DNA of 50,216 bases from a bacterium (GTDB lineage Archaea; Aenigmatarchaeota; Aenigmatarchaeia; CG10238-14; SCSR01), in contig DAIDAX010000002.1 of the NCBI GenBank assembly GCA_027310405.1, positions 1 to 50,216 of the forward strand, read 5' to 3'. Below are positions 7,162 through 41,212 of this stretch, one piece after another. Each line of letters begins with the position of its first letter. The stretch's first letter is position 1. Both the position numbers and the translations under genes were made by a program. The notes below the pieces were generated by a model. That model had not been told where the DNA came from and made no database searches. It saw only the letters and a program-made list of their open reading frames with translations.

Positions 7162-9345
7162 TTAAAAGTTTTCTAGATTACTTTGTTCGAGTTTTTCAAT
7201 TTTCTGTCCTTCTAATTGTTTTTTGATTATTGCTGCAACATTAGCTCCAACAATTCGTGATAGACTTTCAATTGGAATTTTTCTCAAATCTTCTAACGAT
7301 TTTAGATTTGCATTCCACAATTTTCTTGCACGGACTCTGCCAATTTGTTCGAGTTTAACAAGTGGAAGAAGTTCTTCGCGAATTCCATAAGTCATTCTTA
7401 CACGTGTTTTTCTAACTTCAGTCAAACATTTTTTATTGTCAGTAAGTAAAGCAAGTTCATGTAATGCATACAACAGCCAATCAGCATTTCTTCTCCGATT
7501 AAAAAGTTCTCCGGGCGCAACTTTATACTTGACTAGAATTTCTTCCTCGGTTTTCTCATTTATCCAATCTTCAAACATCAGTGCTGTCTTGATTGATTTA
7601 AAAAATTCTTCAAAATCTAAATCCCATTCTTCTGGAATGGTTCGCAAGAATTGGTTTGTGTTTCGTGCAATAAAATCTTCGAGATCTGCGAACTCTCCAC
7701 TACGCACAGACAATAGTGGGCGCATTTCAGGAACTTCAGAAACTGTCTGCAGAAAACTGAACGAAGAAAGTTTTCTTTCTTCAGAAGTTTTGAGAGCTTC
7801 AAGGAAATTAAATGCAGTTAGTGGATCTATGTATAGTTCTGAAACTCTTTTTCCAATTTTTGTTGCGCGAATTTTTCCGTCAGAAACAGTAACGAACTTC
7901 CATTCAACAAGTTTTGATAAAACTTCTTCTAATTTTTCTTCTAAGCCAGCTTCACTTCCATATTGAAATGCATAGAAAGTTTTTCCAAAAAAATCATAGA
8001 GTTTTTTTTCTGTATTTACAAAATCACTTGCAATTAACGCAAGAGTATGCGTTCGTAAAATTGGTTCTACTGCGAGTTTAGAATGAATTTCTTCAGGTTC
8101 TCCTAAAATAAATTTTTCAGTCAAATCGTGTGCATCATTTTCATTTTTCGCAACAAGTATCGATTCGCCAAATTCGTCGTATTGTGGTCTTCCTGCTCTA
8201 CCAGTCATTTGTTTGTACTCGAGAACTGGAATGTAGACCGAGCCTACTCCAGCGTAAAATCTTTTTGCATCTCTAATAATCACTCTGAATGCTGGTAGAT
8301 TGACACCGAGTGCTAGCGTTGGTGTTGATGTTATTGCTTTCAGTAATCCTTTTCGGAAATTTTCTTCAATAAGTTGTTTTTGTTTTCCCAAAAGTCCGGC
8401 ATGATGAAACGCAACGCCACGTCTAATACATGTTGCTAATTTTTTACACTGATGTGTTGGAATTTCCAAAACATTTAAAATTTCTTCAGAAAGTTTTGCT
8501 AGTTCAAACTCTTCATTCTTTTTTAAGAAAGGTTTGCTTGTCTTAGTTAATTGCTCTGCAAGTGTCTCTGCATTTTTCCTGCTCGAAACGAAAAACAAAC
8601 ATTGTTTGTTCATCTGCAACGTGTTTTGCAAAATTGCATCTTCACTTTTGATATCGCTGAGATTGTAGGATTTTTTTCCGTAAAACTGAATTTGTGAATC
8701 GGAGAATACTCCTTCGTAAAGTTTCACTGGTCTGAAATCACTGAGCACTAAAGTTGCATTCAACCATTTAGAAAGTTCTTGAGAATTTTTTACTGTAGCT
8801 GAAAGTGTAAGTATGTGAGCTCTTGGTGCAACTTCTCGTAATCTCGTCAGCAAAATTTCCAGAGTCGGTCCTCTCTCCGAATCGTTTAGCAAATGAATCT
8901 CGTCAGCAACGGCTAGTCCAATTTGTGAAGCCCAACTAACATTGTGTCTGAGAAGGCTGTCGAGTTTTTCAGATGTCGCAACAATTATGTCATAATCTGC
9001 AAGCCACGGGTCAGAAGAATCATAATCACCGACAGAAATTGCAACTTTGTATTCATCACCAAAAAAGTTTTTGAAATAATTATATTTTTCATAAGCGAGC
9101 GCGACAAGAGGAACGATATAAACTATCTTGTTTTTTGTCTGACTGAGTTTTTTGTACATTACGAGTTCAGCCATTAAAGTTTTTCCACCCGCTGTTGGGA
9201 GAGTTATGACAAGATTTCTATCGTGCAGTAAATTCTTTCTTACCATGTCTGCTTGCGGAGGATAAAGTTCTTGAATTTTTTCTTTCTTCAGTTTGTCAAC
9301 AATTTTTTCAGAAAAACCAAACTTCAGAAGTTCTTCGACTTTCAT
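7162..9345 (-). CDS. hel308: Hel308/Hjm (Ski2-like) DNA helicase
   Basis: LPTAGGKTLMAE (Walker A), VADEIHLL (DEIH box), LSATV, HHAGL, TPTLALGVNLPA and QMTGRAGRPQYD. The start is set at the internal ATG (MKVEELLKFGF). The 53-codon upstream extension in the ORF track overlaps kae1 and looks non-coding. Confidence 0.9.
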   Translation of the reverse strand: MKVEELLKFGFSEKIVDKLKKEKIQELYPPQADMVRKNLLHDRNLVITLPTAGGKTLMAELVMYKKLSQTKNKIVYIVPLVALAYEKYNYFKNFFGDEYKVAISVGDYDSSDPWLADYDIIVATSEKLDSLLRHNVSWASQIGLAVADEIHLLNDSERGPTLEILLTRLREVAPRAHILTLSATVKNSQELSKWLNATLVLSDFRPVKLYEGVFSDSQIQFYGKKSYNLSDIKSEDAILQNTLQMNKQCLFFVSSRKNAETLAEQLTKTSKPFLKKNEEFELAKLSEEILNVLEIPTHQCKKLATCIRRGVAFHHAGLLGKQKQLIEENFRKGLLKAITSTPTLALGVNLPAFRVIIRDAKRFYAGVGSVYIPVLEYKQMTGRAGRPQYDEFGESILVAKNENDAHDLTEKFILGEPEEIHSKLAVEPILRTHTLALIASDFVNTEKKLYDFFGKTFYAFQYGSEAGLEEKLEEVLSKLVEWKFVTVSDGKIRATKIGKRVSELYIDPLTAFNFLEALKTSEERKLSSFSFLQTVSEVPEMRPLLSVRSGEFADLEDFIARNTNQFLRTIPEEWDLDFEEFFKSIKTALMFEDWINEKTEEEILVKYKVAPGELFNRRRNADWLLYALHELALLTDNKKCLTEVRKTRVRMTYGIREELLPLVKLEQIGRVRARKLWNANLKSLEDLRKIPIESLSRIVGANVAAIIKKQLEGQKIEKLEQSNLENF

Positions 9346-9391
9346 GTGAACACAATTAACTTCTTGATTTTTAAATGTTAGAAATATTCGT
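9346..9391. promoter_or_regulatory. shared bidirectional promoter with a palindromic TATA box
   Basis: TTTAAA at 9370-9375 lies ~27 nt from the hel308 ATG (9345, -) and ~20 nt from the kae1 ATG (9392, +). This is consistent with leaderless divergent transcripts. Confidence 0.4.
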
Positions 9392-10369
9392 ATGATCTGT
9401 CTTGGGATAGAAAGCACGGCGCACACTTTTGGAGTGGGAGTTGTAAACGATCGGGGGAAAATTTTGTCCGACTCTAGAGACATGTTTGTACCTAAACCTG
9501 GCAAAGGATTTGTTCCAAAGGAGTTGGCTGATCATCACATTGAATTTGCTTTCAAAATAGTTGATGATGCATTAAAGAAATCTAGTTTAAAGCTGCATGA
9601 TTTAGATCTGATTGCTTTTTCACAAGGACCTGGTATTCCAAATTCTTTGAGAATTGGTGCAGCTGCCGCAAGATTTTTGGCGACAAAATTTAATAAACCT
9701 CTTGTAGGAGTTAATCATCCTGTTGCTCATATTGAAATTGGAAAATTGAACACTGGAGCAAAAGATCCGATTGTCGTTTATTTGTCGGGAGGAAACACGC
9801 AGATAATTGCACATGTTGAAGGAAAGTATAGAGTTTTTGGTGAGACTGAAGATATTCCTGTCGGAAATTGTTTTGATGTTGTCGCGAGAGAAATTAGTTT
9901 ACCTTATCCTGGTGGGTCAAATATAGAAAAATTTGCAAAGAACGGAAACTATGTAGAACTTCCTTACATTGTAAAAGGTATGGATCAAAGTTTCAGTGGA
10001 ATTGCAACTGCTGCTGTGAAAAAATTCAAAGCCGGAGTGAGAAAGGAAGACATTTGTTACAGTTTGCAGGAAACTTGTTTTGCAATGTTGACAGAAGTCA
10101 CCGAACGAGCGATGGCTCATACAGAGAAAAAAGAAGTGTTGCTTGTCGGCGGGGTTGCAGCGAACAAAAGATTACAAGAGATGATGAACAAAATGTGTGA
10201 GGAGCGCGGAGCGAAAATGTTTGTTGTCGATGAAAATTTTTCAGGAGATAATGGAACGATGATTGCTTGGACTGGATTGCTTCAATACTCTACAGAGAAA
10301 AAGCAGACTAAAGATACTTCTATCAAACAAAATTGGCGCACCGATGAAGTGAAAACAATTTGGATTTAG
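9392..10369 (+). CDS. kae1: Kae1 (tRNA t6A37 threonylcarbamoyltransferase, KEOPS catalytic subunit)
   Basis: MICLGIESTAHTFGVGVV, GPGIPNSLRIGAAAAR, GVNHPVAHIE, YLSGGNTQ, LVGGVAANKRL and SGDNGTMIAW are ASKHA/Kae1 signatures. Confidence 0.92.
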   Translation: MICLGIESTAHTFGVGVVNDRGKILSDSRDMFVPKPGKGFVPKELADHHIEFAFKIVDDALKKSSLKLHDLDLIAFSQGPGIPNSLRIGAAAARFLATKFNKPLVGVNHPVAHIEIGKLNTGAKDPIVVYLSGGNTQIIAHVEGKYRVFGETEDIPVGNCFDVVAREISLPYPGGSNIEKFAKNGNYVELPYIVKGMDQSFSGIATAAVKKFKAGVRKEDICYSLQETCFAMLTEVTERAMAHTEKKEVLLVGGVAANKRLQEMMNKMCEERGAKMFVVDENFSGDNGTMIAWTGLLQYSTEKKQTKDTSIKQNWRTDEVKTIWI

Positions 10370-12610: not shown

Positions 12611-12943
12611 TTATTTATATTGTTTCAAAAATTCGTTTATTTCCTGTCCGTCAGTTTGTAAGACAACTTTTTGCGGATTCATTATACGGATTTTTCCATA
12701 GCCAAAATCAACGACGAGAAAGAATGGAAATTTTTCAAGTTCCTTTTGCATGTATCCGTAATAGTAAAACTTTTTTTTACCGGAGGATTTTATCTGAAGC
12801 ATTATACAATTTCCACGTTTCATGCAAATGAGATCAGCTTCTCCTATACTTGCACCAGCACGAACAACAATCCATCCGTTTTTTTCAAACATAATTCGAA
12901 TTTTTCTTTCAACTCTGTAGCCCTTTCTCTTCGAGTGAACCAT
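12611..12943 (-). CDS. hjc: Holliday junction resolvase Hjc-like (PD-(D/E)xK nuclease)
   Basis: SKRKGYRVERKIRIMFEKNGWIVVRAGAS.GEADLICMK..CIMLQIKS matches the Hjc layout (E..., D, E/Q-x-K). 110 aa. Confidence 0.65.
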   Translation of the reverse strand: MVHSKRKGYRVERKIRIMFEKNGWIVVRAGASIGEADLICMKRGNCIMLQIKSSGKKKFYYYGYMQKELEKFPFFLVVDFGYGKIRIMNPQKVVLQTDGQEINEFLKQYK

Positions 12944-12978: not shown

Positions 12979-13656
12979 ATGAGAATACTCGCGATTGCTT
13001 GCATACACAATGACATAGAAAGTTTGTTGAATCTTCTCGACAAAATTTCTGGAGAAAAATTTGATGTTGTTGTGTGTCCTGGAGATTTCACTGACTTATC
13101 TTTGCCGAAAGGTTTCACTCGTGTCGACGTAGGGAAACTTATTCTTGAGGAACTTCGTAATGCTGGCAAACCCATTGTTACTGTTCCTGGAAGTTGGGAT
13201 AAAGAGTTGATAGAATTTTTAGATAAACAAAATGTTAGCGTTCATGGAAAATCGATTGTTGTTAATGATGTTGCGTTCTACGGTTATGGTGGTGCACGAA
13301 CGCCTTTCGGAACTCCATTCGAGCCGAGCGATTTGGAAATTGAAAATGGATTACGTGCGGCATACAAAAATATTTCACATAAAGCAGTGAAAGTTCAGGT
13401 GACTCATGCTCCGCCAGCGAATACGAAGCTTGATGTTATTTACAGTGGTGCGCATGTCGGATCTGAAGCAGTGAGAAAAATCATTCAGGAATTTGAACCG
13501 ACTGTTGCAATTTCTGCACACATTCACGAATCGAAAGGAGTAGATGCTCTTGGAAAAACAACTCTTGTAAATCCTGGAAGATTTCCAGAAGGAACTTGCG
13601 CTCTTATCGACATAGATAATGGGAAAGCTACAGCAAAAATCGTGAGTCTGACCTAG
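12979..13656 (+). CDS. calcineurin-like metallophosphoesterase
   Basis: VVCPGDFTD (GD motif), THAPP and SAHIHES (GHxH-like). Motif I reads ACIHN and motif III reads GSWD, so both are partly non-canonical. Confidence 0.65.
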   Translation: MRILAIACIHNDIESLLNLLDKISGEKFDVVVCPGDFTDLSLPKGFTRVDVGKLILEELRNAGKPIVTVPGSWDKELIEFLDKQNVSVHGKSIVVNDVAFYGYGGARTPFGTPFEPSDLEIENGLRAAYKNISHKAVKVQVTHAPPANTKLDVIYSGAHVGSEAVRKIIQEFEPTVAISAHIHESKGVDALGKTTLVNPGRFPEGTCALIDIDNGKATAKIVSLT

Positions 13657-13736: not shown

Positions 13737-14129
13737 ATGACTAATCAAGAACAGTCGATTAATTTTTCTACAGAAATTCAAGAAGCCTCTACAAATCTGG
13801 ATGAAAATGTTTTGACTCTCGCCGAAAGAATGGATTTCTTGGACGTTCAGCTTTTGAGAAAATTTTATTCAACTGGCAAACCATTCCCAAATGACACGCA
13901 ACCGTTTTGTTTTCCTGTTCTGTTTATGGAAATGAAAGTCAACAACAAAATTCAGATCGGGCTCGAGGCCTTGAGGAAGAGACTTGATAACCTTGTTAGT
14001 CTTGGGTTCTTGGAAAAAGTTGTTAGATCAAATCCTGCAAACTACACTCCAGTTCATGGTAAAGAAGTCGAAGTCCGGGCCCTCATAACACGTTTCTTTG
14101 TGATTAATGGTTTAATGAAATATTTGTGA
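13737..14129 (+). CDS. winged-helix DNA-binding protein, hypothetical
   Basis: LDVQLLRKFY ... GLEALRKRLDNLVSLGFLEKV resembles a wHTH recognition helix plus wing. A GAGGGAG RBS-like element lies upstream. Confidence 0.5.
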   Translation: MTNQEQSINFSTEIQEASTNLDENVLTLAERMDFLDVQLLRKFYSTGKPFPNDTQPFCFPVLFMEMKVNNKIQIGLEALRKRLDNLVSLGFLEKVVRSNPANYTPVHGKEVEVRALITRFFVINGLMKYL

Positions 14130-14408: not shown

Positions 14409-14666
14409 ATGAAACGCGGGCGTCCAAACGTCAGAAATTTAGTTCAAAACAATCTTCTGCTTGTTTTAACAACTGCACAGACACCAATGACCGTTTCTTC
14501 GCTGACAAGGTTCATTTCAAAACAGATCAACAAGCAATTGAGCTGGAACACAGTTCAAAAATATTTACAAGAACTCATTCAAGCTGACAAAGTACAAGCA
14601 ATCTCACTTCCACACTCGAAACTTGAAGACAGGAATGGCTTAACCGTTTATACATTGAGGAAGTAA
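14409..14666 (+). CDS. small winged-helix DNA-binding protein, hypothetical
   Basis: LLLVLTTAQTPMTVSSLTRFISKQINKQLSWNTVQKYLQELIQADKV..GLTVYTL has an HTH plus beta-wing layout. A TATA-like tatttaag lies ~20 nt upstream. Confidence 0.5.
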   Translation: MKRGRPNVRNLVQNNLLLVLTTAQTPMTVSSLTRFISKQINKQLSWNTVQKYLQELIQADKVQAISLPHSKLEDRNGLTVYTLRK

Positions 14667-14680
14667 TAGATTACGATTTC

Positions 14681-15709
14681 ATGAACGCACAGGAAGTCAT
14701 TAATAAATTTATTTCAAAAGGATTTCAGCTGAACTCAGACAGTCTGAAATTTTTCACAGAGAATCCGGAAAAAATTGATGACTTCATTACCGAATTAGAA
14801 AATCTTCCACAAAAGCCAACAACGATTACAAAAGAGAACGTAACCAAATTTTTGGAGACTACAGAATCCGAAATCAAAATAATTGAAGAATTTCCAAGAC
14901 AGAACAAAGTTCTCACGACAAACGAAGTTGCACAAATTTATCAGAACCAATTTGATAGAATTAAAAAAATTCTCTCCAATAGGATTGATTTACCAAACTC
15001 GATATCAATAAACAAAATCTCCGACAAGCTGAAAGAATTTTCGATAATAGCAAGAGTTTCACAGATTGATGGAAGCAAAATTATTCTAGAAGACCTAACA
15101 AACCAGATAACTGTAACTTTTCCAAACTCAGAATCCGATAAGCAATTTTTAATTGAAGGAGAAGTCGCGGGATTTATTTGCTCAAATACAGAAAGAGGTC
15201 TACAAATTAAAAAAATAATCTGGCCAGATTTACAATTCAAAAAAGAAGTCACAAAAGGCACAGGGAAAATTATGTTTTCAAACACAACCGACGAAAAACT
15301 ACAACAATCATCAATAAAAATATTTCTTGGAAACGAAGGTCTCTTTTTAGAAAGAGACTCAGAAATTAAAAAAATATCCGATCCATGTATACTTGAAATG
15401 AACGGAGTACGAATTTTTGTTTCGCATGGAAAAATTTTAGAAAAATATAAGGCTAAGCTTGGAGATACTGCAGCAAAAATAATTCTAAATCTAGCTCGCA
15501 AACGAATAATTTTTCCACCGAAATCAATTGCAGAAAATTTTGTACTAGAGGAAATTCCAGATATTTTTGTTGTTGATTCTTTCGGAGAGGCCGAGGCAAT
15601 CACATACAAAGGAACAACTTTTCTTTCGTTAGGTGACCCTAACAAGAAAAAAACTGCGTGGATAGTGGATCTACAAACTAGAGAAAACGTTAAAATAGAT
15701 TTGAATTAA
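14681..15709 (+). CDS. DNA polymerase small/B-subunit-like protein (DP1 homolog, shortened, degenerate phosphoesterase motifs)
   Basis: Aligned by eye to archaeal PolD DP1. Matching segments: N-terminal VINKFISKGFQLNSDSLKFF, FDRIKKIL, an OB-like segment FSIIARVSQIDGSKIILEDLTNQITVTF, GEVAGFIC..IKKIIWPDL, DPCILEMNGVRIFVSHG, LARKRIIFPP, IPDIFVVDSFGE..YKGTTFLSLG. Expected motifs DxH, GDxxDG, GNHD and GHxH read FSNTTD, absent, GNEG and DSFG. Confidence 0.65.
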   Translation: MNAQEVINKFISKGFQLNSDSLKFFTENPEKIDDFITELENLPQKPTTITKENVTKFLETTESEIKIIEEFPRQNKVLTTNEVAQIYQNQFDRIKKILSNRIDLPNSISINKISDKLKEFSIIARVSQIDGSKIILEDLTNQITVTFPNSESDKQFLIEGEVAGFICSNTERGLQIKKIIWPDLQFKKEVTKGTGKIMFSNTTDEKLQQSSIKIFLGNEGLFLERDSEIKKISDPCILEMNGVRIFVSHGKILEKYKAKLGDTAAKIILNLARKRIIFPPKSIAENFVLEEIPDIFVVDSFGEAEAITYKGTTFLSLGDPNKKKTAWIVDLQTRENVKIDLN

Positions 15710-15718
15710 TTAGTAAGC

Positions 15719-18430
15719 ATGGAAATCGTTTTTCAACTTCTAGACTGTGATTATGTTCTGCTTGATGGATTGCCTCTAGTGAGAATTTTTGGAAAAACCG
15801 AGGAAGGAAAATCCACATGCATCTTCGTGAAAAACTATTTTCCATATTTTTATATCCAAGTCTCAGAAGAAAGGAAACAAGAACTCAAAACTTTTCTTGA
15901 CAAAAAATTCAAAAACCAAATTCTAAAAATAGAAGAAGTAGAAAAATTTATCCCAGCAGGGTATCAAGAAAGCAAAACCAAATTACAGAAAATAATTTCC
16001 AAAGACCCATCACAAGTCCCTATGATAAGAGACGAGTTATCGAACCAAAAGTTTGTGGAAAAGATTTTTGAGGCTGATATACTTTTCAAATATAGATTCA
16101 TGGCAGACTGGAATTTGTTTGGCATGCGTTGGTACAAAGTGAACGGAACCAAGATGAAAACACAGACAGTAAAGGCGGATTACCCAATTGAACTCGAGTC
16201 AATCGAAGAGGTACAGGATAAACAAAGCAGTTTTAAATTCCTAAGTGTTGACATAGAAACGATTTCGGAAGAAGGGTTGCCTGATGCGACAAAGGATCAG
16301 ATTGCAATAATTAGTTTAGCATTCGAACCAGAGTTCAATGGGCATTCAGCAATTGTTCTTGTTGCTAAGCCAACTGCCAGACACAATGGGGACATTCAGG
16401 TTTTCAAAAACGAAAAAGAAATGTTACAGGAATTTGGGAAAATAATTTCGAACTACGATCCAGACATGATAATAGGCTACAACGTAAATAATTTTGACAT
16501 ACCTTTCATATCGGAAAGATTTTCTCAAAACAAATTATCGAAAACCCTAGGCCGAGACAATCAAAAACCTCTCATGTCGCATAAAATCGCAGGAAGTTTT
16601 AGAAATTCAATAATTGGAAGAACAATTGTCGATGTGTACGATCTGGTAAAAGAAACTCAAATTAAAACACAACTTGCAGAGAAAGGTTTCTCCAAACTTA
16701 AACGATACGGACTAGACGATGTAGCAAAAGAACTTTTGAAGGAAGGTAAAGTCGAAATTATCAAAAGTGACATTCCGAAAATGTGGAATGGAAATTCGGA
16801 TCAGATAAAACTTTTGCTTGATTATGCAAGAAAGGATGCAGAACTTGCACTGAAGCTTCTCATCAGAATTTCGATGCTTGACAAATTCGTAGAAATTTCA
16901 AAAGTTTCTGGATTGCTACTTCAGGATTCGTTAGACGGCGGGGAAGCCACACGAGTTGAAAACATATTGTTGAGAAAATTTGATAAAGAAGATTTTGTTT
17001 TACCGCTAAAGCCGAGCTCCAACGAAATTTTAAAACGAAGCGAAGACAGAATATCACGTGGATTCAAGGGGGCGTTGGTGCTTGAACCAATCGCGGGGTT
17101 GCATACAACTCCGATAATTTATCTCGACTTCAAGTCAATGTATCCGTCAATCTTCATCGCATACAATCTTTGTCCATCAACTGTAATTATTAAACCAACA
17201 AACGTTACCGACGTAATAGAAACTCCGAACAAAGTCAAGTTTGTCGGCAAATCTGTGCGAGAAGGCGTAATGCCGAAAGTGGTAAGAGAACTCATAGAAG
17301 AGCGTGATAAAGTTCGCGCAGAGGCAAAGAAAACAAAGGACGAAAGCAAGAAAAAAATCCTCGAAGCAAAACAAATTGCGCTAAAGTATATGACCAACTC
17401 TTTCTATGGCTATACCGGATACGAGAGAGCCCGATTGTACATGCTCGATATAGCAACGTCGATTACTGCATGTGGACGGTTCCTAATTGAAAAAACAAAA
17501 TCTCTTGTCGAAGAAGACAAAACGCTGAAAGTCGTTTACGGTGACACAGATTCGATTATGGTAAAGACGAGCTTATCCAATATTGACGAAGCTTTTGCAA
17601 CCGGTCTTCAACTTGAGAAAAAGGTGAACAAAGCCCTGGAAGGAATCATTCAAATAAAGATAGAAAGCGTCTTCGGATCGTTACTTATTCTTTCGAAGAA
17701 AAGATACGCTGGTCTAAGTTACGAAAAATCGGAAGATGGCTGGAAAGAAAAACTGACTATGAAAGGAATAGAAACTGTCAGACGCGACTGGTGTGACTTG
17801 ACGAGCGAGACACTAAGAATAATTCTCGAAATAATTTTGCGAGAGAAAAATCCGAAGAAAGCTCTGAACTACATGAGAGATGTTATACGAAAGTTAGACA
17901 GGAACGAGATTCCGGTAGAAAAATTGGTGATAACAAAATCAATCACGAAATCGATACGCGCGTACAAAGGAATACAGCCACATGTAGAACTTTTGAAAAA
18001 ACTCAAGAAACGAGATGAAGCTTCCGCTCCAGGAATCGGAGACAGAATAGGTTTTGTCATCATTCATGGCACTCAGCTTCTGTCTGAACGTTCGGAAGAT
18101 CCAGAATATGTCAAGATACACAAACTGAAAGTTGATTCGAAATACTACATCGAAAACCAAATTCTTCCGCCACTCGAAAGAGTGTTTGAAGCAATAGGAA
18201 TTTCAAAATCAGAAATTCTTCACGCCGGAAAACAACTTCTTTTAACTGACTCGATTAAGAACGGCATAACAAAACCAGAGAATCAAGTACTGCACGAGAT
18301 TGACGGATTCATTTGTGACAAATGCAATAAGACCTACACACTGATGCCGATGATAGGAAAATGTTTTGACTGCGGCGGAGAAATCGAATTCTACAAAGGA
18401 GAGAACAAGGCAAGGTATTTCTCGCCATGA
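15719..18430 (+). CDS. polB: family B DNA polymerase (PolB) with C-terminal C4 zinc ribbon
   Basis: Exo I FLSVDIET, Exo II IIGYNVNNFDIPF, Exo III YARKDAELAL, Pol A YLDFKSMYPSI, Pol B KYMTNSFYGYTG, Pol C VVYGDTDSIMV, KKRYAG. The C-terminal extension is CDKC..(14 aa)..CFDC. No intein. Confidence 0.95.
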   Translation: MEIVFQLLDCDYVLLDGLPLVRIFGKTEEGKSTCIFVKNYFPYFYIQVSEERKQELKTFLDKKFKNQILKIEEVEKFIPAGYQESKTKLQKIISKDPSQVPMIRDELSNQKFVEKIFEADILFKYRFMADWNLFGMRWYKVNGTKMKTQTVKADYPIELESIEEVQDKQSSFKFLSVDIETISEEGLPDATKDQIAIISLAFEPEFNGHSAIVLVAKPTARHNGDIQVFKNEKEMLQEFGKIISNYDPDMIIGYNVNNFDIPFISERFSQNKLSKTLGRDNQKPLMSHKIAGSFRNSIIGRTIVDVYDLVKETQIKTQLAEKGFSKLKRYGLDDVAKELLKEGKVEIIKSDIPKMWNGNSDQIKLLLDYARKDAELALKLLIRISMLDKFVEISKVSGLLLQDSLDGGEATRVENILLRKFDKEDFVLPLKPSSNEILKRSEDRISRGFKGALVLEPIAGLHTTPIIYLDFKSMYPSIFIAYNLCPSTVIIKPTNVTDVIETPNKVKFVGKSVREGVMPKVVRELIEERDKVRAEAKKTKDESKKKILEAKQIALKYMTNSFYGYTGYERARLYMLDIATSITACGRFLIEKTKSLVEEDKTLKVVYGDTDSIMVKTSLSNIDEAFATGLQLEKKVNKALEGIIQIKIESVFGSLLILSKKRYAGLSYEKSEDGWKEKLTMKGIETVRRDWCDLTSETLRIILEIILREKNPKKALNYMRDVIRKLDRNEIPVEKLVITKSITKSIRAYKGIQPHVELLKKLKKRDEASAPGIGDRIGFVIIHGTQLLSERSEDPEYVKIHKLKVDSKYYIENQILPPLERVFEAIGISKSEILHAGKQLLLTDSIKNGITKPENQVLHEIDGFICDKCNKTYTLMPMIGKCFDCGGEIEFYKGENKARYFSP

Positions 18431-18990
18431 GCATAACTGATTTGGATTTGCAGATTCTGCAATTTTTCAATGTAAGCCTTTCCCCAACAATTAACACGCT
18501 CGTCGTTATTCTTTCGTACACAATTTACGCATACGTTTTGATCATGGCGTTTTATCTTTACAGGAAAAAAGACAAGAGAACCTTTGTGCATTTTCTGCTT
18601 TCTGTAGTTACAGGATTTATTTTCGTGTACATTCTGAAGTATGCAATTAATCGACCGAGGCCTTACGTTTCATATCCAAACATTATTACTCCGCTAGCAC
18701 AAGAATCTTCTCCATCTTTTCCATCTAGTCATGCATTCTTTTCTTTTTTGATGATGCGTTTCATTCCGAAAAACTTTTCAAAAATTTACAAAATTCTCAA
18801 CATTCTATACTTGATTTCTGTTTCGCTCAGTGTTCTTTACATTGGTGAACATTATCCATCGGATGTTCTAGTCGGTGCAATACTCGGCTACATCTTCCCA
18901 TATTTTATTACGGAAAAAATTTCTACAAGAATTTGGAATTTCTTCGCTACAAAAGTTCCATTACTAGACAAGCTTCTCAAGCCGCTCTAG
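18427..18990 (+). CDS. PAP2-family (polyprenyl-diphosphate/lipid) phosphatase
   Basis: PAP2 motifs KYAINRPRP, PSSH and GEHYPSDVLVG. Polytopic. ATGA overlap with the polB stop. Confidence 0.8.
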   Translation: MSITDLDLQILQFFNVSLSPTINTLVVILSYTIYAYVLIMAFYLYRKKDKRTFVHFLLSVVTGFIFVYILKYAINRPRPYVSYPNIITPLAQESSPSFPSSHAFFSFLMMRFIPKNFSKIYKILNILYLISVSLSVLYIGEHYPSDVLVGAILGYIFPYFITEKISTRIWNFFATKVPLLDKLLKPL

Positions 18991-36538: not shown

Positions 36539-37489
36539 ATGCAACTAGAAGAAATCTTCAAAGAACTAGAGAAAAATAAAAAAATTTCCAGAGAGGAAGC
36601 TTTACAAAGAGTAAATCAAAAAATAGAAGATCTATTTGGATTAGTTACACAAGAGGCAGCAGCATATTTAGTTGCAAAAGATTTAGGAATCAATTTGCCT
36701 CAACTTGAGAGAAAACCTCTACAAATAAAAAACATAACGACAGGAATGAGAAACGTTTCTTTCGTCGGAAGAGTTTTTAAAATTTCTCCAATAAATGAAT
36801 TCCAGAAGAAAAATAGGAAAGGACGTGTAGTAAATATTTTTATCGCTGATAACACAGGATACATTAGGATTCCTTTGTGGAATGATCAAGTTAGACTAAT
36901 TGAGGACGGAGAAATAAATCTCGGAGACGTTTTACAAATTTCTGGAGGATTGGCTCAGGAAAATATTTACGGCGATGTTGAAGTTTCTCTTGGAAAATTT
37001 GGAACGATTAAACCAGCGGAAGGTTATTTCGATTTGCCAACAACAGAAAAACTTTCAAAAAACTTTTTATCCAACGTACCGCAACGCATAAAAATTTCTG
37101 ATATAGTTCCAGGAAATTTGGAAATATGCGGAACAATTGTACAACTTACTGGAAGAAAATTTATTTTCGAATCGGACGGAGAAAAGGCGATGATGATTTC
37201 TTGCTTGATTGACGACGGCACCGGAGATTTGCGAATAATTTTTTTCAGAAATCAGGCAGAAAACTTGTTGAACGATTCTGTCAATGAGCTTTTGCAAATT
37301 CCCGAAGAAAACAGATACGATTACGTTGCACAAAAAATTCTCGGAAGAGAAATCGCAGTCGTGGGGAAAGTGAAAAAAAATGAGCGCTTCGATTCTCTCG
37401 AAATGATCGCAGACGACTTAAAAGCTTTAAATCCTTTGGACGAGAGTAAGAAATTAGCTGACGAGATTCAGCTTCTGTTAGGTGAATGA
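36539..37489 (+). CDS. replication protein A / OB-fold ssDNA-binding protein
   Basis: N-terminal helical segment ending [14 protein letters not shown], then OB-fold repeats ([13 protein letters not shown]......[23 protein letters not shown]; [10 protein letters not shown]..). Overlaps the radA start by 8 nt. Confidence 0.7.
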
Positions 37490-38441
37490 TTTGGCGAAAA
37501 AAGAATTCGTGCTTGAAGACGTTCCGGGTGTCGGAGAAAAGATTGCAGAAAAACTCAGACAAATTGGTTATGCAGATCCTATGGCAATTGCTGTTTCTTC
37601 ACCAACCGAACTCGCGATGATTGCAGAAATCGGAGAAGGACAGGCAACAAAAATAATTGGCGCAGTTAGACAGATGCTCGATATTGGGTTTACTACTGCT
37701 GATAAAATTTTGGAAAAGAAAATTGCAACAGCAAAAATTTCTACTGGAGTTCAAAGTTTAGATAAACTTCTTGGCGGCGGAGTAGAAACACAGGCGATAA
37801 CAGAAGTTTATGGACAATTCGCAAGTGGAAAATCGCAACTAGGGTTTCAACTTTCTGTAAATGTACAACTTCCAGCAGACAAAGGCGGACTTGGAAGAAA
37901 TTGTCTTTTCATCGACACAGAAAATACCTTTTCGCCAACTCGAATTATTCAGATTGCAAAAACTTTGAAACTTGATCCAGAAAAAATTTTGAGAAATATT
38001 TTCGTCGCACGCGCCTACAATTCTGATCATCAGATGCTTCTTTTGGATAAAGCTACTGAAATGATTGAGGAAAAAAATATTGGATTGATTGTTATCGACA
38101 GTCTGACTTCACACTTCCGTTCCGATTTTGTTGGACGAGGAGAACTTGCTCCCAGACAACAGAAGTTGAACAAACATTTGCACACTTTGCAGAGACTTGC
38201 TGACGCGCACAACCTCGCTGTTTATGTGACTAACCAAGTCATGGCGAGACCCGATGTTCTTTTTGGAGATCCAACTGCACCAGTTGGCGGTCATGTTCTT
38301 GCACATCAAGCGACATACCGATTGTACTTCAGAAAAGGAAAGGAAGGAACGAGAATTGCACGCCTTATGGATGCAGCGAATTTACCTGAAGGCGAAGCTA
38401 TTTTCAAAATAACAGAGAATGGTTTAATCGACGTGGCATAG
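37482..38441 (+). CDS. radA: DNA repair and recombination protein RadA
   Basis: HhH N-domain ([20 protein letters not shown]), Walker [19 protein letters not shown], Walker [20 protein letters not shown] and GGHVLAH. Confidence 0.93.
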
Positions 38442-39835: not shown

Positions 39836-41212
39836 TTGTTTCTGGATTATGCAGAAAAAATTGCAAAGATTTCCAAAGCGATAATTCGACAAAAGAAAGT
39901 CAAAATATTTTCACAGTTTGATTGCGACGGTCTCTGCTCTGCATCGATTCTTACAAAAGCGATGCTGAGAGAAAATGTCAATTTTGAATTGAGAATTTAC
40001 AAACAGTTAACGGAAAAACTGTTGAATGAAATTCAAGCATCTGAAAACGATTTTTTAATTTTTGCCGATTTTGGAAGCGGACAACTACAAATGATGCAGA
40101 ATATTTTGGACAAGACACAAGTGTTGATTTTGGATCATCATGAACCAGTGAACTTCAATCACATGAATCTTCTACACGTAAATCCAATGATGCATAATGA
40201 AGACGAAATGTCTGCTTCTATAGTTTGCTATAGCTTTGCAAAATTTCTAAATCCACGAAATACTGATTTAGTCGACATCGCACTTATCGGCGCAATCGGA
40301 GATGAATCAGGCGAGAAGTGGGAATTCAAAGGATTCATAAAAAAAATTTTAGAAGAGGCTGAAGTGCTAGGCAAAGTTTCTGTGCACAAGGGTCTTCGAT
40401 TCTACGGAAGATCGACAAGACCGATACACAAATCTTTGGCTCTCACTTATGAACCGTTCATTCCAGGAGTTTCAGGATCGGAATCGCAAGCAATTCAATT
40501 TCTTTCCGATATAGGTATTCGAACAAAACAAGACGGCGATTGGATAAAACTGAAGGATTTGACAAAAGAAGAAGAGCAAAAACTTGCAAGCGCGATAATC
40601 GTAGAAAGAATGAAAACAGAAACTGCAGCAGAGGATATTTTTGGAGACATCTATACGCTCATTGGAAAACCAGAAGAGTTACAAGATGCGCGCGAATTTG
40701 CAACTCTCGTGAATGCATGCGGGCGTACACAAATGCCTCAGATTGCAATTCGTTTGTTATTGGGTGATTATTCAGCGATAGAGAATTCACATCAAACGAT
40801 TGAAGATTACAGACGTATGATTAGCGATGCACTGAATTGGTTGAGAGAAAATCCAGAATCAATAAAACAAACCCCCCTTGCTAATTTCATTATTGCTAAT
40901 GGAAAAATTCCAGAGAGCATAATCGGAACAATAGCATCAATTGTTGTAAATTCTGATTTTGTTGACTCTGCTCAACCACTTTTTGCTCTTGCGAATTCTG
41001 ACGAAGATAAAATGAAAATTTCTGCACGACTTCCAAAAAATTTGAAAATAAATCTAAGAGGTGTGATGACAAAAATAATTTCGAAAACTGGTGGAGAGGC
41101 TGGAGGTCATGCTAATGCAGCAGGAGGTTTTATTCCAAAAGCAAAAGTTGAAGAATTTATTAACACTACACAAATGGTATTAGGTGAAATGATTGTCGGT
41201 AAAGAAAGCTAA
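39836..41212 (+). CDS. archaeal RecJ/Cdc45-like DHH nuclease (GAN-like)
   Basis: FDCDGLCSASIL, ILDHHEP, GAIGDE, and the DHHA1-type TGGEAGGHANAAGGFI. Apparent TTG start 4 nt after the rps15 stop. Confidence 0.8.
   Translation: MFLDYAEKIAKISKAIIRQKKVKIFSQFDCDGLCSASILTKAMLRENVNFELRIYKQLTEKLLNEIQASENDFLIFADFGSGQLQMMQNILDKTQVLILDHHEPVNFNHMNLLHVNPMMHNEDEMSASIVCYSFAKFLNPRNTDLVDIALIGAIGDESGEKWEFKGFIKKILEEAEVLGKVSVHKGLRFYGRSTRPIHKSLALTYEPFIPGVSGSESQAIQFLSDIGIRTKQDGDWIKLKDLTKEEEQKLASAIIVERMKTETAAEDIFGDIYTLIGKPEELQDAREFATLVNACGRTQMPQIAIRLLLGDYSAIENSHQTIEDYRRMISDALNWLRENPESIKQTPLANFIIANGKIPESIIGTIASIVVNSDFVDSAQPLFALANSDEDKMKISARLPKNLKINLRGVMTKIISKTGGEAGGHANAAGGFIPKAKVEEFINTTQMVLGEMIVGKES

Follow-up and report, generated by a model that had tools for sequence, protein, structure and literature searches.

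In Aenigmarchaeota, a family-B DNA polymerase (PolB) of the group B6-aenigma1 occurs together with an inactive group of DP1, the small subunit of the archaeal D-family polymerase (PolD), and the PolD partner subunit DP2 is absent from most genomes (Kazlauskas et al. 2020, NAR 48:10142; PMC7544198). The same study proposed that it was already in archaea that a PolB bearing a C-terminal domain (CTD) took the place of DP2 and that DP1 became inactive. A 2025 report in Nat Ecol Evol (PMC12680538) likewise describes Aenigmatarchaeota that lack DP2 and retain DP1, uses AlphaFold3 and yeast two-hybrid assays to show that DP1 binds PolB-DP2CTD—a PolB with a DP2-derived CTD—in both Aenigmatarchaeota and Baldrarchaeia, reassigns the two-motif 'B6-aenigma2' sequences to contamination from Baldrarchaeia, and favours an Asgard (Baldrarchaeia) over an aenigmarchaeal source of the eukaryotic complex. 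The pairing of a dead DP1 with PolB in Aenigmatarchaeota is thus already known, from 2020 onward and with two-hybrid support since 2025. A dead DP1 joined to a PolB with a DP2-derived finger is the archaeal arrangement closest to the eukaryotic polymerases alpha, delta and epsilon and is therefore relevant to the question of how eukaryotic replicases came together, a significance that has been recognised and partly tested in both of these studies. Here, we analyse a 50,216-nt stretch of aenigmarchaeal DNA (assembly GCA_027310405.1, contig DAIDAX010000002.1, positions 1 to 50,216; hereafter, the window), in which a gene for a 342-aa DP1-like protein lies immediately upstream of polB, and which adds a very divergent, extra-reduced example to the known system.

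What is the role of a DP1 homologue that has lost its active site and stands beside a gene for PolB? We consider it very probable that the 342-aa protein serves as the second subunit, non-catalytic and equivalent to a B-subunit, of the replicative family-B polymerase of an aenigmarchaeote (DPANN). The features on which this reading is built are given below, with positions counted along the window.

14681–15709, forward strand: inactivated, shortened homologue of DP1 and B-subunits, 342 aa (open reading frame (ORF) with its ATG at 14681 and a stop codon that ends at 15709)
14681–14863, forward strand: N-terminal helical domain, residues 1–61, the equivalent of DP1N, with four helices in the AF2 model (H3–12, H19–27, H29–40 and H51–61)
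15035–15223, forward strand: OB-fold domain, residues ~119–181, with an LEDxTG and a terminal PD motif (beta strands of the model, E119–180)
15224–15706, forward strand: degenerate calcineurin-like phosphoesterase (PDE) domain, residues 182–342 (alignment with canonical DP1 and motif census)
15719–18430, forward strand: family-B DNA polymerase, 903 aa, its exonuclease and polymerase motifs intact (Pfam DNA_pol_B, 5.5e-119; exo1, 3.5e-35)
18314–18373, forward strand: C-terminal C4 zinc ribbon of PolB, C866–C885, CDKCNKTYTLMPMIGKCFDC, a docking module of the DP2 Zn-III/CysB type

Sequence profiles and predicted structure both point to DP1. The NCBIfam model of the PolD small subunit (NF003118) matches residues 2–191 of the protein (E=2.3e-20), and the residues of its N-terminal domain align with the N-terminus of canonical DP1, the NCBIfam alignment beginning at residue 2. 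A profile of the seven closest relatives retrieves the DP1 chains 6knb_A, 5ihe_A and 6t8h_A from the PDB across the OB and PDE domains (E=7e-17 to 1e-14); a family profile was needed here, as phmmer with the single sequence found nothing meaningful in the PDB. The AF2 model, computed from an 11-sequence alignment (mean pLDDT 84.4, pTM 0.73), displays a two-layer calcineurin-like phosphoesterase fold into which an OB fold is inserted, and its top 48 Foldseek matches in the PDB are solely DP1s or eukaryotic B-subunits (query-normalised TM-scores of 0.47–0.60). Best among these are the DP1s of P. abyssi and T. kodakarensis (3.4e-16) and the B-subunits of Pol delta, zeta, epsilon and alpha, including 6tny_B (Pol delta p50; 1.9e-13), 5vbn_A (3.4e-10) and 4y97_C (1.3e-8). 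Conservation relative to canonical DP1 is highest in the N-terminal DP1N-like domain and in the OB fold, and E137, D138, T140, P182 and D183 are invariant in the alignment of the short family with canonical DP1.

The short family is larger than it first appears. An exhaustive profile search yielded 167 clusters (at 50% identity) with intact ORFs at E<=1e-30, mostly 325–412 aa long, and the median over 153 collected family sequences is 364 aa. The notion of a rare family, which had come from a word-indexed search that returned only six short relatives, was consequently dropped. Within this family, the 342-aa protein belongs to a sub-clade of four proteins (336–349 aa) that share at most 32% identity with any GTDB representative, and it carries an additional deletion of ~30–50 residues around motif II as compared to most other members.

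PolB is encoded directly downstream in all 29 loci with a short DP1-like gene, 18 of them from GTDB representative genomes, at a spacing of 9–70 nt; among canonical DP1 loci, it is adjacent in none of eight. In the window, nine nucleotides separate the DP1-like stop codon (15709) from the PolB start (15719). Scanning the GTDB representatives with the DP1-like profile gave 18 full-length matches, of which 11 are titled Aenigmatarchaeota and 7 'uncultured archaeon', with no other phylum name among them; the related loci that bear a phylum-level name are likewise all from Aenigmatarchaeota. In the DP1s of Woesearchaeota and Methanosarcinales, only the OB part was matched. The neighbourhood, too, is conserved phylum-wide and comprises the Holliday-junction resolvase Hjc, a 225-aa metallophosphoesterase, an ORF of ~130 aa, an 85-aa ORF, the DP1-like gene, PolB, a PAP2-family phosphatase and SecDF. 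No DP2-like ORF is present within the 50-kb window, where the scanned ORFs are all otherwise assigned and the largest encode PolB, a Hel308-like helicase and STT3.

An earlier note on this DNA, made from the sequence alone, had described the protein as a shortened DP1/B-subunit-like protein encoded 9 nt upstream of polB and not next to DP2. The coordinates agree, PolB is intact, adjacency extends to all 29 related loci, and the homology to DP1 is upheld by NF003118, by the PDB profile matches (best, 7e-17) and by a Foldseek result made up of DP1s and B-subunits alone. 'Shortened' is correct with respect to canonical DP1, but the short length is usual in the family. The profile searches that the note had proposed as a check recover DP1 with NCBIfam and with the family profile; the Pfam B-subunit model, however, stays below its threshold.

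How much of the active site is left? In P. abyssi DP1, two metals are held by D363, H365, D407, N453, H500, H563 and H565, and a further histidine in motif III is required for catalysis (PMC4996933). Read against an alignment with canonical DP1s from Woesearchaeota, the corresponding positions of the 342-aa protein are as follows.

15275–15292, forward strand: FSNTTD, remnant of motif I (canonical SD.H, here SNTT)
15329–15340, forward strand: GNEG, where canonical DP1 has GNHD
15422–15430, forward strand: SHG, motif IV, with its histidine H249 kept
15575–15586, forward strand: DSFG, motif V (canonical GH.H)

The GDxxDG block of motif II is deleted along with the segment that follows it. At most two of the seven metal ligands remain, namely N218 in motif III and H249 in motif IV, and these are likewise the most that is retained of eight scored motif residues; neither is conserved among the closest relatives. 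The protein thus lacks the full set of seven ligands plus motif III histidine of a catalytically active DP1. Residue-level mapping in the degenerate motif regions is uncertain, as the register differs between alignments: a larger MAFFT alignment moves motif I by three residues (D204/K206), and DxH is restored in no register. Given the few remaining ligands and the motif II deletion, exonuclease activity would not be expected of this protein. The motif readings of the earlier note (SNTT, loss of GDxxDG, GNEG, DSFG) are borne out by the alignment, and so is the dead site that it described; what it missed is the retained motif IV histidine, H249, and the motif III asparagine, N218, is kept as well. 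The residues that do not vary from the short family to canonical DP1—LEDxTG, two PD motifs, K274/R275, Y309 and L..RE—all lie outside the five active-site motifs, as one would expect if a scaffold had given up catalysis and kept its structure.

Selection appears to maintain this scaffold. Comparison of the DP1-like gene with its nearest relative gave a dN of 0.23 and a dS above 1.4, the latter saturated, so that only the qualitative statement that dN is far below dS is used; judging by these substitution rates and by the intact ORFs of 167 clusters, the gene is under purifying selection and not a pseudogene. Across the family, decay of the active site is graded. Among 138 short representatives with a length of 300 aa or more, 72 retain none of the eight scored residues and ~15 retain DxH, GD, the motif IV histidine and GHxH, with the motif III asparagine and/or histidine missing in most. 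One such representative, P0160 (locus L011, 1932–3101), reads FISDFHFG, LLGDTFTDG, GDHD, FHGD and CGHFHK across the five motifs and is encoded within the same arrangement of 85-aa ORF, DP1-like gene and PolB; P0154, P0134 and ~12 more are further examples. This gradation suggests that inactivation proceeded gradually, possibly repeatedly, and after DP2 had been replaced by PolB.

In the polymerase, both active sites are preserved. Its exonuclease motifs (Exo I, D178-I-E; Exo II, N255xxxFD; Exo III, Y369xxxD) and polymerase motifs (A, D470FKSMYPS; B, K556xxxNSFYG; C, YGDTDS607) are intact. Over its full length it is 55–84% identical to PolBs of ~900 aa, whose phylum names are all Candidatus Aenigmarchaeota/Aenigmatarchaeota except for one Omnitrophica bacterium, placing it by identity, not by a tree, among the aenigmarchaeal B6-type PolBs. 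An inactive DP1 and a B6-type PolB hence co-occur here as neighbours, as in all 29 loci; the assignment to B6-aenigma1 and to the aenigmarchaeal DP1 group is made by shared features and phylum labels rather than by a joint phylogeny with the published accessions.

At its C-terminus, PolB carries a single Cys4 motif related to DP2 Zn-III, with the pattern C866-DK-C-x12-C-FD-C885 (CxxC-x12-CxxC). All of the 120 top PolB homologues have such a ribbon, 103 in the form CxxC..CxxC and 17 as CxxC..CxC. The best PDB matches of a profile made from the last 85–100 residues of 18 PolBs are DP2 Zn-III regions, namely residues 1127–1157 of T. kodakarensis 6knb_B (E=5e-7) and 1119–1149 of P. abyssi 6hms_B (4e-6), and the family consensus CekCnktyrrvpliGkCseCgg is nearly superimposable on the aligned DP2 Zn-III string. 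The ribbon is thus of DP2 origin. A second Cys4 motif is absent from the last 80 residues of this PolB and of 119 related ones, and the pair of CysA and CysB typical of eukaryotes is therefore not present. In PolD, the Zn-III finger and its KxRRxP loop dock in an acidic groove between the OB and PDE domains of DP1, into which the loop arginines insert, and the Pol alpha CTD and the Pol epsilon CTD bind their B-subunits in the same geometry (PMC6355029). Among 120 related PolBs, 101 have RR as the loop pair and 117 have at least one arginine in it. As a side observation, three related aenigmarchaeal PolBs (P0094, P0118 and P0131) measure 1251–1332 aa and contain intein/LAGLIDADG domains (PF14890, PF14528); the PolB of the window has no intein.

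Together, these data suggest how the two proteins might work as one enzyme. The 342-aa protein derives from DP1, which in PolD is the Mre11-like subunit for proofreading, and has lost the metal-binding site and ~150–190 residues relative to canonical DP1, keeping the N-terminal helices, the OB fold and a reduced phosphoesterase scaffold. PolB would supply both polymerase and 3′-5′ exonuclease activity, as its motifs predict. Its terminal zinc ribbon, inherited from the DP2 C-terminus (Zn-III being the equivalent of eukaryotic CysB), would dock in the OB/PDE groove of the small subunit as this module does in PolD, Pol alpha and Pol epsilon. Through its N-terminal domain, the 342-aa subunit may in turn tether PolB to other parts of the replisome—GINS, primase or RPA—in the manner of DP1N and of eukaryotic B-subunits. 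By analogy with the published work on relatives, we infer that the 342-aa protein binds PolB and that DP2 is missing from the genome. A PolB/B-subunit pairing resembling the eukaryotic one, as the earlier note had envisaged, is thus supported by the dead DP1, the intact PolB, the DP2-type ribbon and the strict adjacency of the genes, as a rediscovery rather than a new arrangement.

Several observations weigh against this assignment as a B-subunit equivalent. No eukaryotic B-subunit appeared at E<=1 in the PDB search with the seven-relative profile. The Pfam family of these subunits, PF04042 (DNA_pol_E_B), scores below its gathering cutoff (E=0.018; 14.9 bits against 29.1) and over residues 229–298 only, which would fit a heavily eroded PDE domain; one relative, P0005, does have a precomputed PF04042 match. 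The docking loop of this very PolB reads KTYTLMP, with T-L in place of Arg-Arg, and both arginines are absent only here, in the nearest relative (K-M) and in one other PolB (V-N). Docking may hence be altered or weaker in this lineage. Moreover, the DP1-like gene evolves fastest in the cluster, at 26–64% identity as compared to 50–84% for PolB. For this particular pair, the case for an interaction rests on the proteins of relatives, and with 50 kb of the genome in view, DP2 or a second, canonical DP1 could lie elsewhere.

If DP2 were indeed encoded outside the window, the 342-aa protein could be the dead proofreading subunit of a PolD, and its place beside polB would be incidental. The restricted view of the genome leaves room for this, as do the greater closeness of the sequence to DP1 than to eukaryotic B-subunits and the statement that it is 'most', and not all, of the sequenced Aenigmarchaeota that are without DP2 (Kazlauskas et al., PMC7544198). 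Yet no DP2-like ORF lies in the window, Aenigmatarchaeota are reported to lack DP2 and yet keep DP1 (PMC12680538), PolB is the neighbour in 29 of 29 loci, and the docking finger of the DP2 type sits on PolB itself, all of which makes a PolD very unlikely. A functionless relic of DP1, decaying and kept by chance or by translational coupling to polB, would account for the fast evolution of the gene, for its progressive deletions and completely lost catalytic motifs, and for the missing docking-loop arginines in the partner PolB of this lineage. Against such decay stand full-length ORFs that are intact across at least 167 clusters (50% identity) and at each of the 29 loci, a dN (0.23) far below dS (>1.4), non-catalytic residues that are invariant out to canonical DP1, a confidently predicted fold and the binding of orthologues to PolB in the yeast two-hybrid system (PMC12680538); we regard a relic as very improbable.

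The 342-aa protein might, alternatively, act independently of PolB as an adaptor that bridges, for instance, GINS, RPA or primase via its N-terminal and OB domains, in which case co-transcription with polB would reflect shared regulation only. These two domains are the ones best conserved relative to canonical DP1, DP1N is reported to bind GINS (PMC9023282), the solved structure 9f2a shows PolD bound to the winged-helix domain of Rpa2, and the RR docking pair is absent from this PolB. An adaptor function is, however, compatible with the role of a B-subunit and not an alternative to it; besides, C-terminal segments of the PDE fold at the docking site are still conserved (PDIF, YKG, L..TRE), and the zinc ribbon is found in 120 of 120 PolB relatives. 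Independence from PolB thus seems very unlikely to us, and the second subunit of PolB remains our preferred reading of the 342-aa protein.

Assuming this role, the locus can be compared with its known counterparts. With the published aenigmarchaeal system it shares the phylum (by named best matches), an active PolB of ~900 aa, one C4 motif most like DP2 Zn-III, an inactivated DP1 homologue and the same gene neighbourhood; it differs in belonging to a small divergent sub-clade with the extra deletion in the motif II region, no conserved catalytic residues and T-L for RR. DP1 itself (P. abyssi 5IHE/6HMF; T. kodakarensis 6KNB) has the same domain order—N-terminal helices, OB fold, calcineurin-like PDE domain—provides the best sequence and structure matches, and has the structural motifs LEDxTG, KKRhL, PDI and TRE in common with the 342-aa protein. 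Unlike the latter, which has lost motif II and all but at most two of the seven ligands, the canonical DP1s recovered in the protein search are 507–538 aa long (PDB chains, up to 662 residues), and DP1 partners with DP2, where PolB would be the partner here. The eukaryotic B-subunits (Pol delta p50/Pol31, Pol alpha p70, Pol epsilon p59/Dpb2) are built on a similarly inactivated OB and PDE scaffold of strong structural similarity and hold a family-B catalytic partner through a C-terminal zinc module. Apart from the missing profile match, they are set apart by their size, the 342-aa protein being much smaller, and by a partner CTD with CysA and CysB on a helical bundle, as opposed to one CysB-like Cys4 motif here. 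In Baldrarchaeia, DP2 is likewise lacking and DP1 binds a PolB (PolB3-DP2CTD) with a DP2-derived CTD; that CTD is full-length, whereas the aenigmarchaeal one has been called 'degenerate' (PMC12680538), and only the zinc ribbon of the PolB in the window gives a sequence match to DP2.

The DP1-like gene is preceded by a further small gene.

14409–14666, forward strand: 85-aa winged-helix ORF that opens the apparent operon, separated by 14 nt from the DP1-like gene downstream

In 26 of 29 related loci, this ORF was detected as the gene immediately upstream of the DP1-like one; L006 and L007 have called ORFs of 82–85 aa in its position. Its 93 homologues are nearly all 84–85 aa long and 44–93% identical, the few that bear a phylum name being Aenigmatarchaeota, and its evolution is slower than that of the DP1-like gene (dN of 0.047 versus 0.23). 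The AF2 model (pLDDT 86) is a winged helix of three helices and a beta-hairpin. Candidate identities as the N-terminal domain of Pol delta p66 or as the winged helix of Rpa2 were considered and not adopted, as Foldseek returned only generic matches of the PadR/Fur type at E>=1e-3 and gave no specific assignment. The protein may serve as a regulator or as an additional subunit of the polymerase. As a third subunit, it would be bridged to PolB by the dead DP1, in a Pol-delta-like holoenzyme of three subunits in a DPANN archaeon, much as the winged-helix N-domain of p66 is linked through p50 to p125; in this lineage, where the Zn-III Arg-Arg pair is lost and the PDE scaffold has its additional deletion, docking would then be rewired. 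We hold this to be unlikely. What may be new, and of use to those working on the system, is the strongly conserved winged-helix gene heading the operon, the graded decay of the active site, with some members keeping four of five motifs, and the loss of the docking-loop Arg-Arg pair in one PolB lineage.

The surroundings of the operon are those of a cellular chromosome. Elsewhere, the window encodes housekeeping proteins such as fibrillarin, Nop5, Kae1, Hel308, RPA, RadA, a GAN/RecJ-like protein, SecDF and ribosomal proteins, and these flanks, together with the phylum-wide synteny, indicate a chromosomal locus; an origin from a mobile element or virus was rejected on the same grounds. About 1 kb upstream of the polymerase operon lie Hjc (12611–12943, reverse strand) and, beside it, the 225-aa calcineurin-like metallophosphoesterase (12979–13656, forward strand; Pfam Metallophos, 7.8e-16), whose motifs appear intact by eye. 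The aenigmarchaeal loci examined have this pair in the same place, at 50–84% identity. Between the metallophosphoesterase and the 85-aa ORF, a 130-aa ORF (13737–14129, forward strand) has no Pfam match, and related loci have an ORF of 125–136 aa in its position. On the other side, the gene for the PAP2-family phosphatase (18427–18990, forward strand) has a 4-nt overlap (ATGA) with the PolB stop codon, which makes co-transcription of the two probable. PAP2 follows PolB in eight of nine related loci with called genes beyond PolB, the place being taken in L003 by a glycosyltransferase (PF00953).

Other genes for replication and repair in the window encode a Hel308-type helicase (7162–9504, reverse strand), an RPA-like OB-fold protein (36539–37489, forward strand), RadA (37482–38441, forward strand) and a RecJ/GAN protein (39836–41212, forward strand). 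The last is Cdc45-like, with DHH, DHH-CID and DHHA1 domains, and both GAN and RPA could plausibly partner the polymerase in the replisome. Between ~21500 and ~36300, a cluster of genes for glycosyltransferases, polysaccharide export, UDP-GlcNAc 2-epimerase, PMT_2 and STT3 forms a cell-surface glycosylation island, in which the G+C content dips to 0.30–0.32 at 24–28 kb and which was possibly acquired horizontally.

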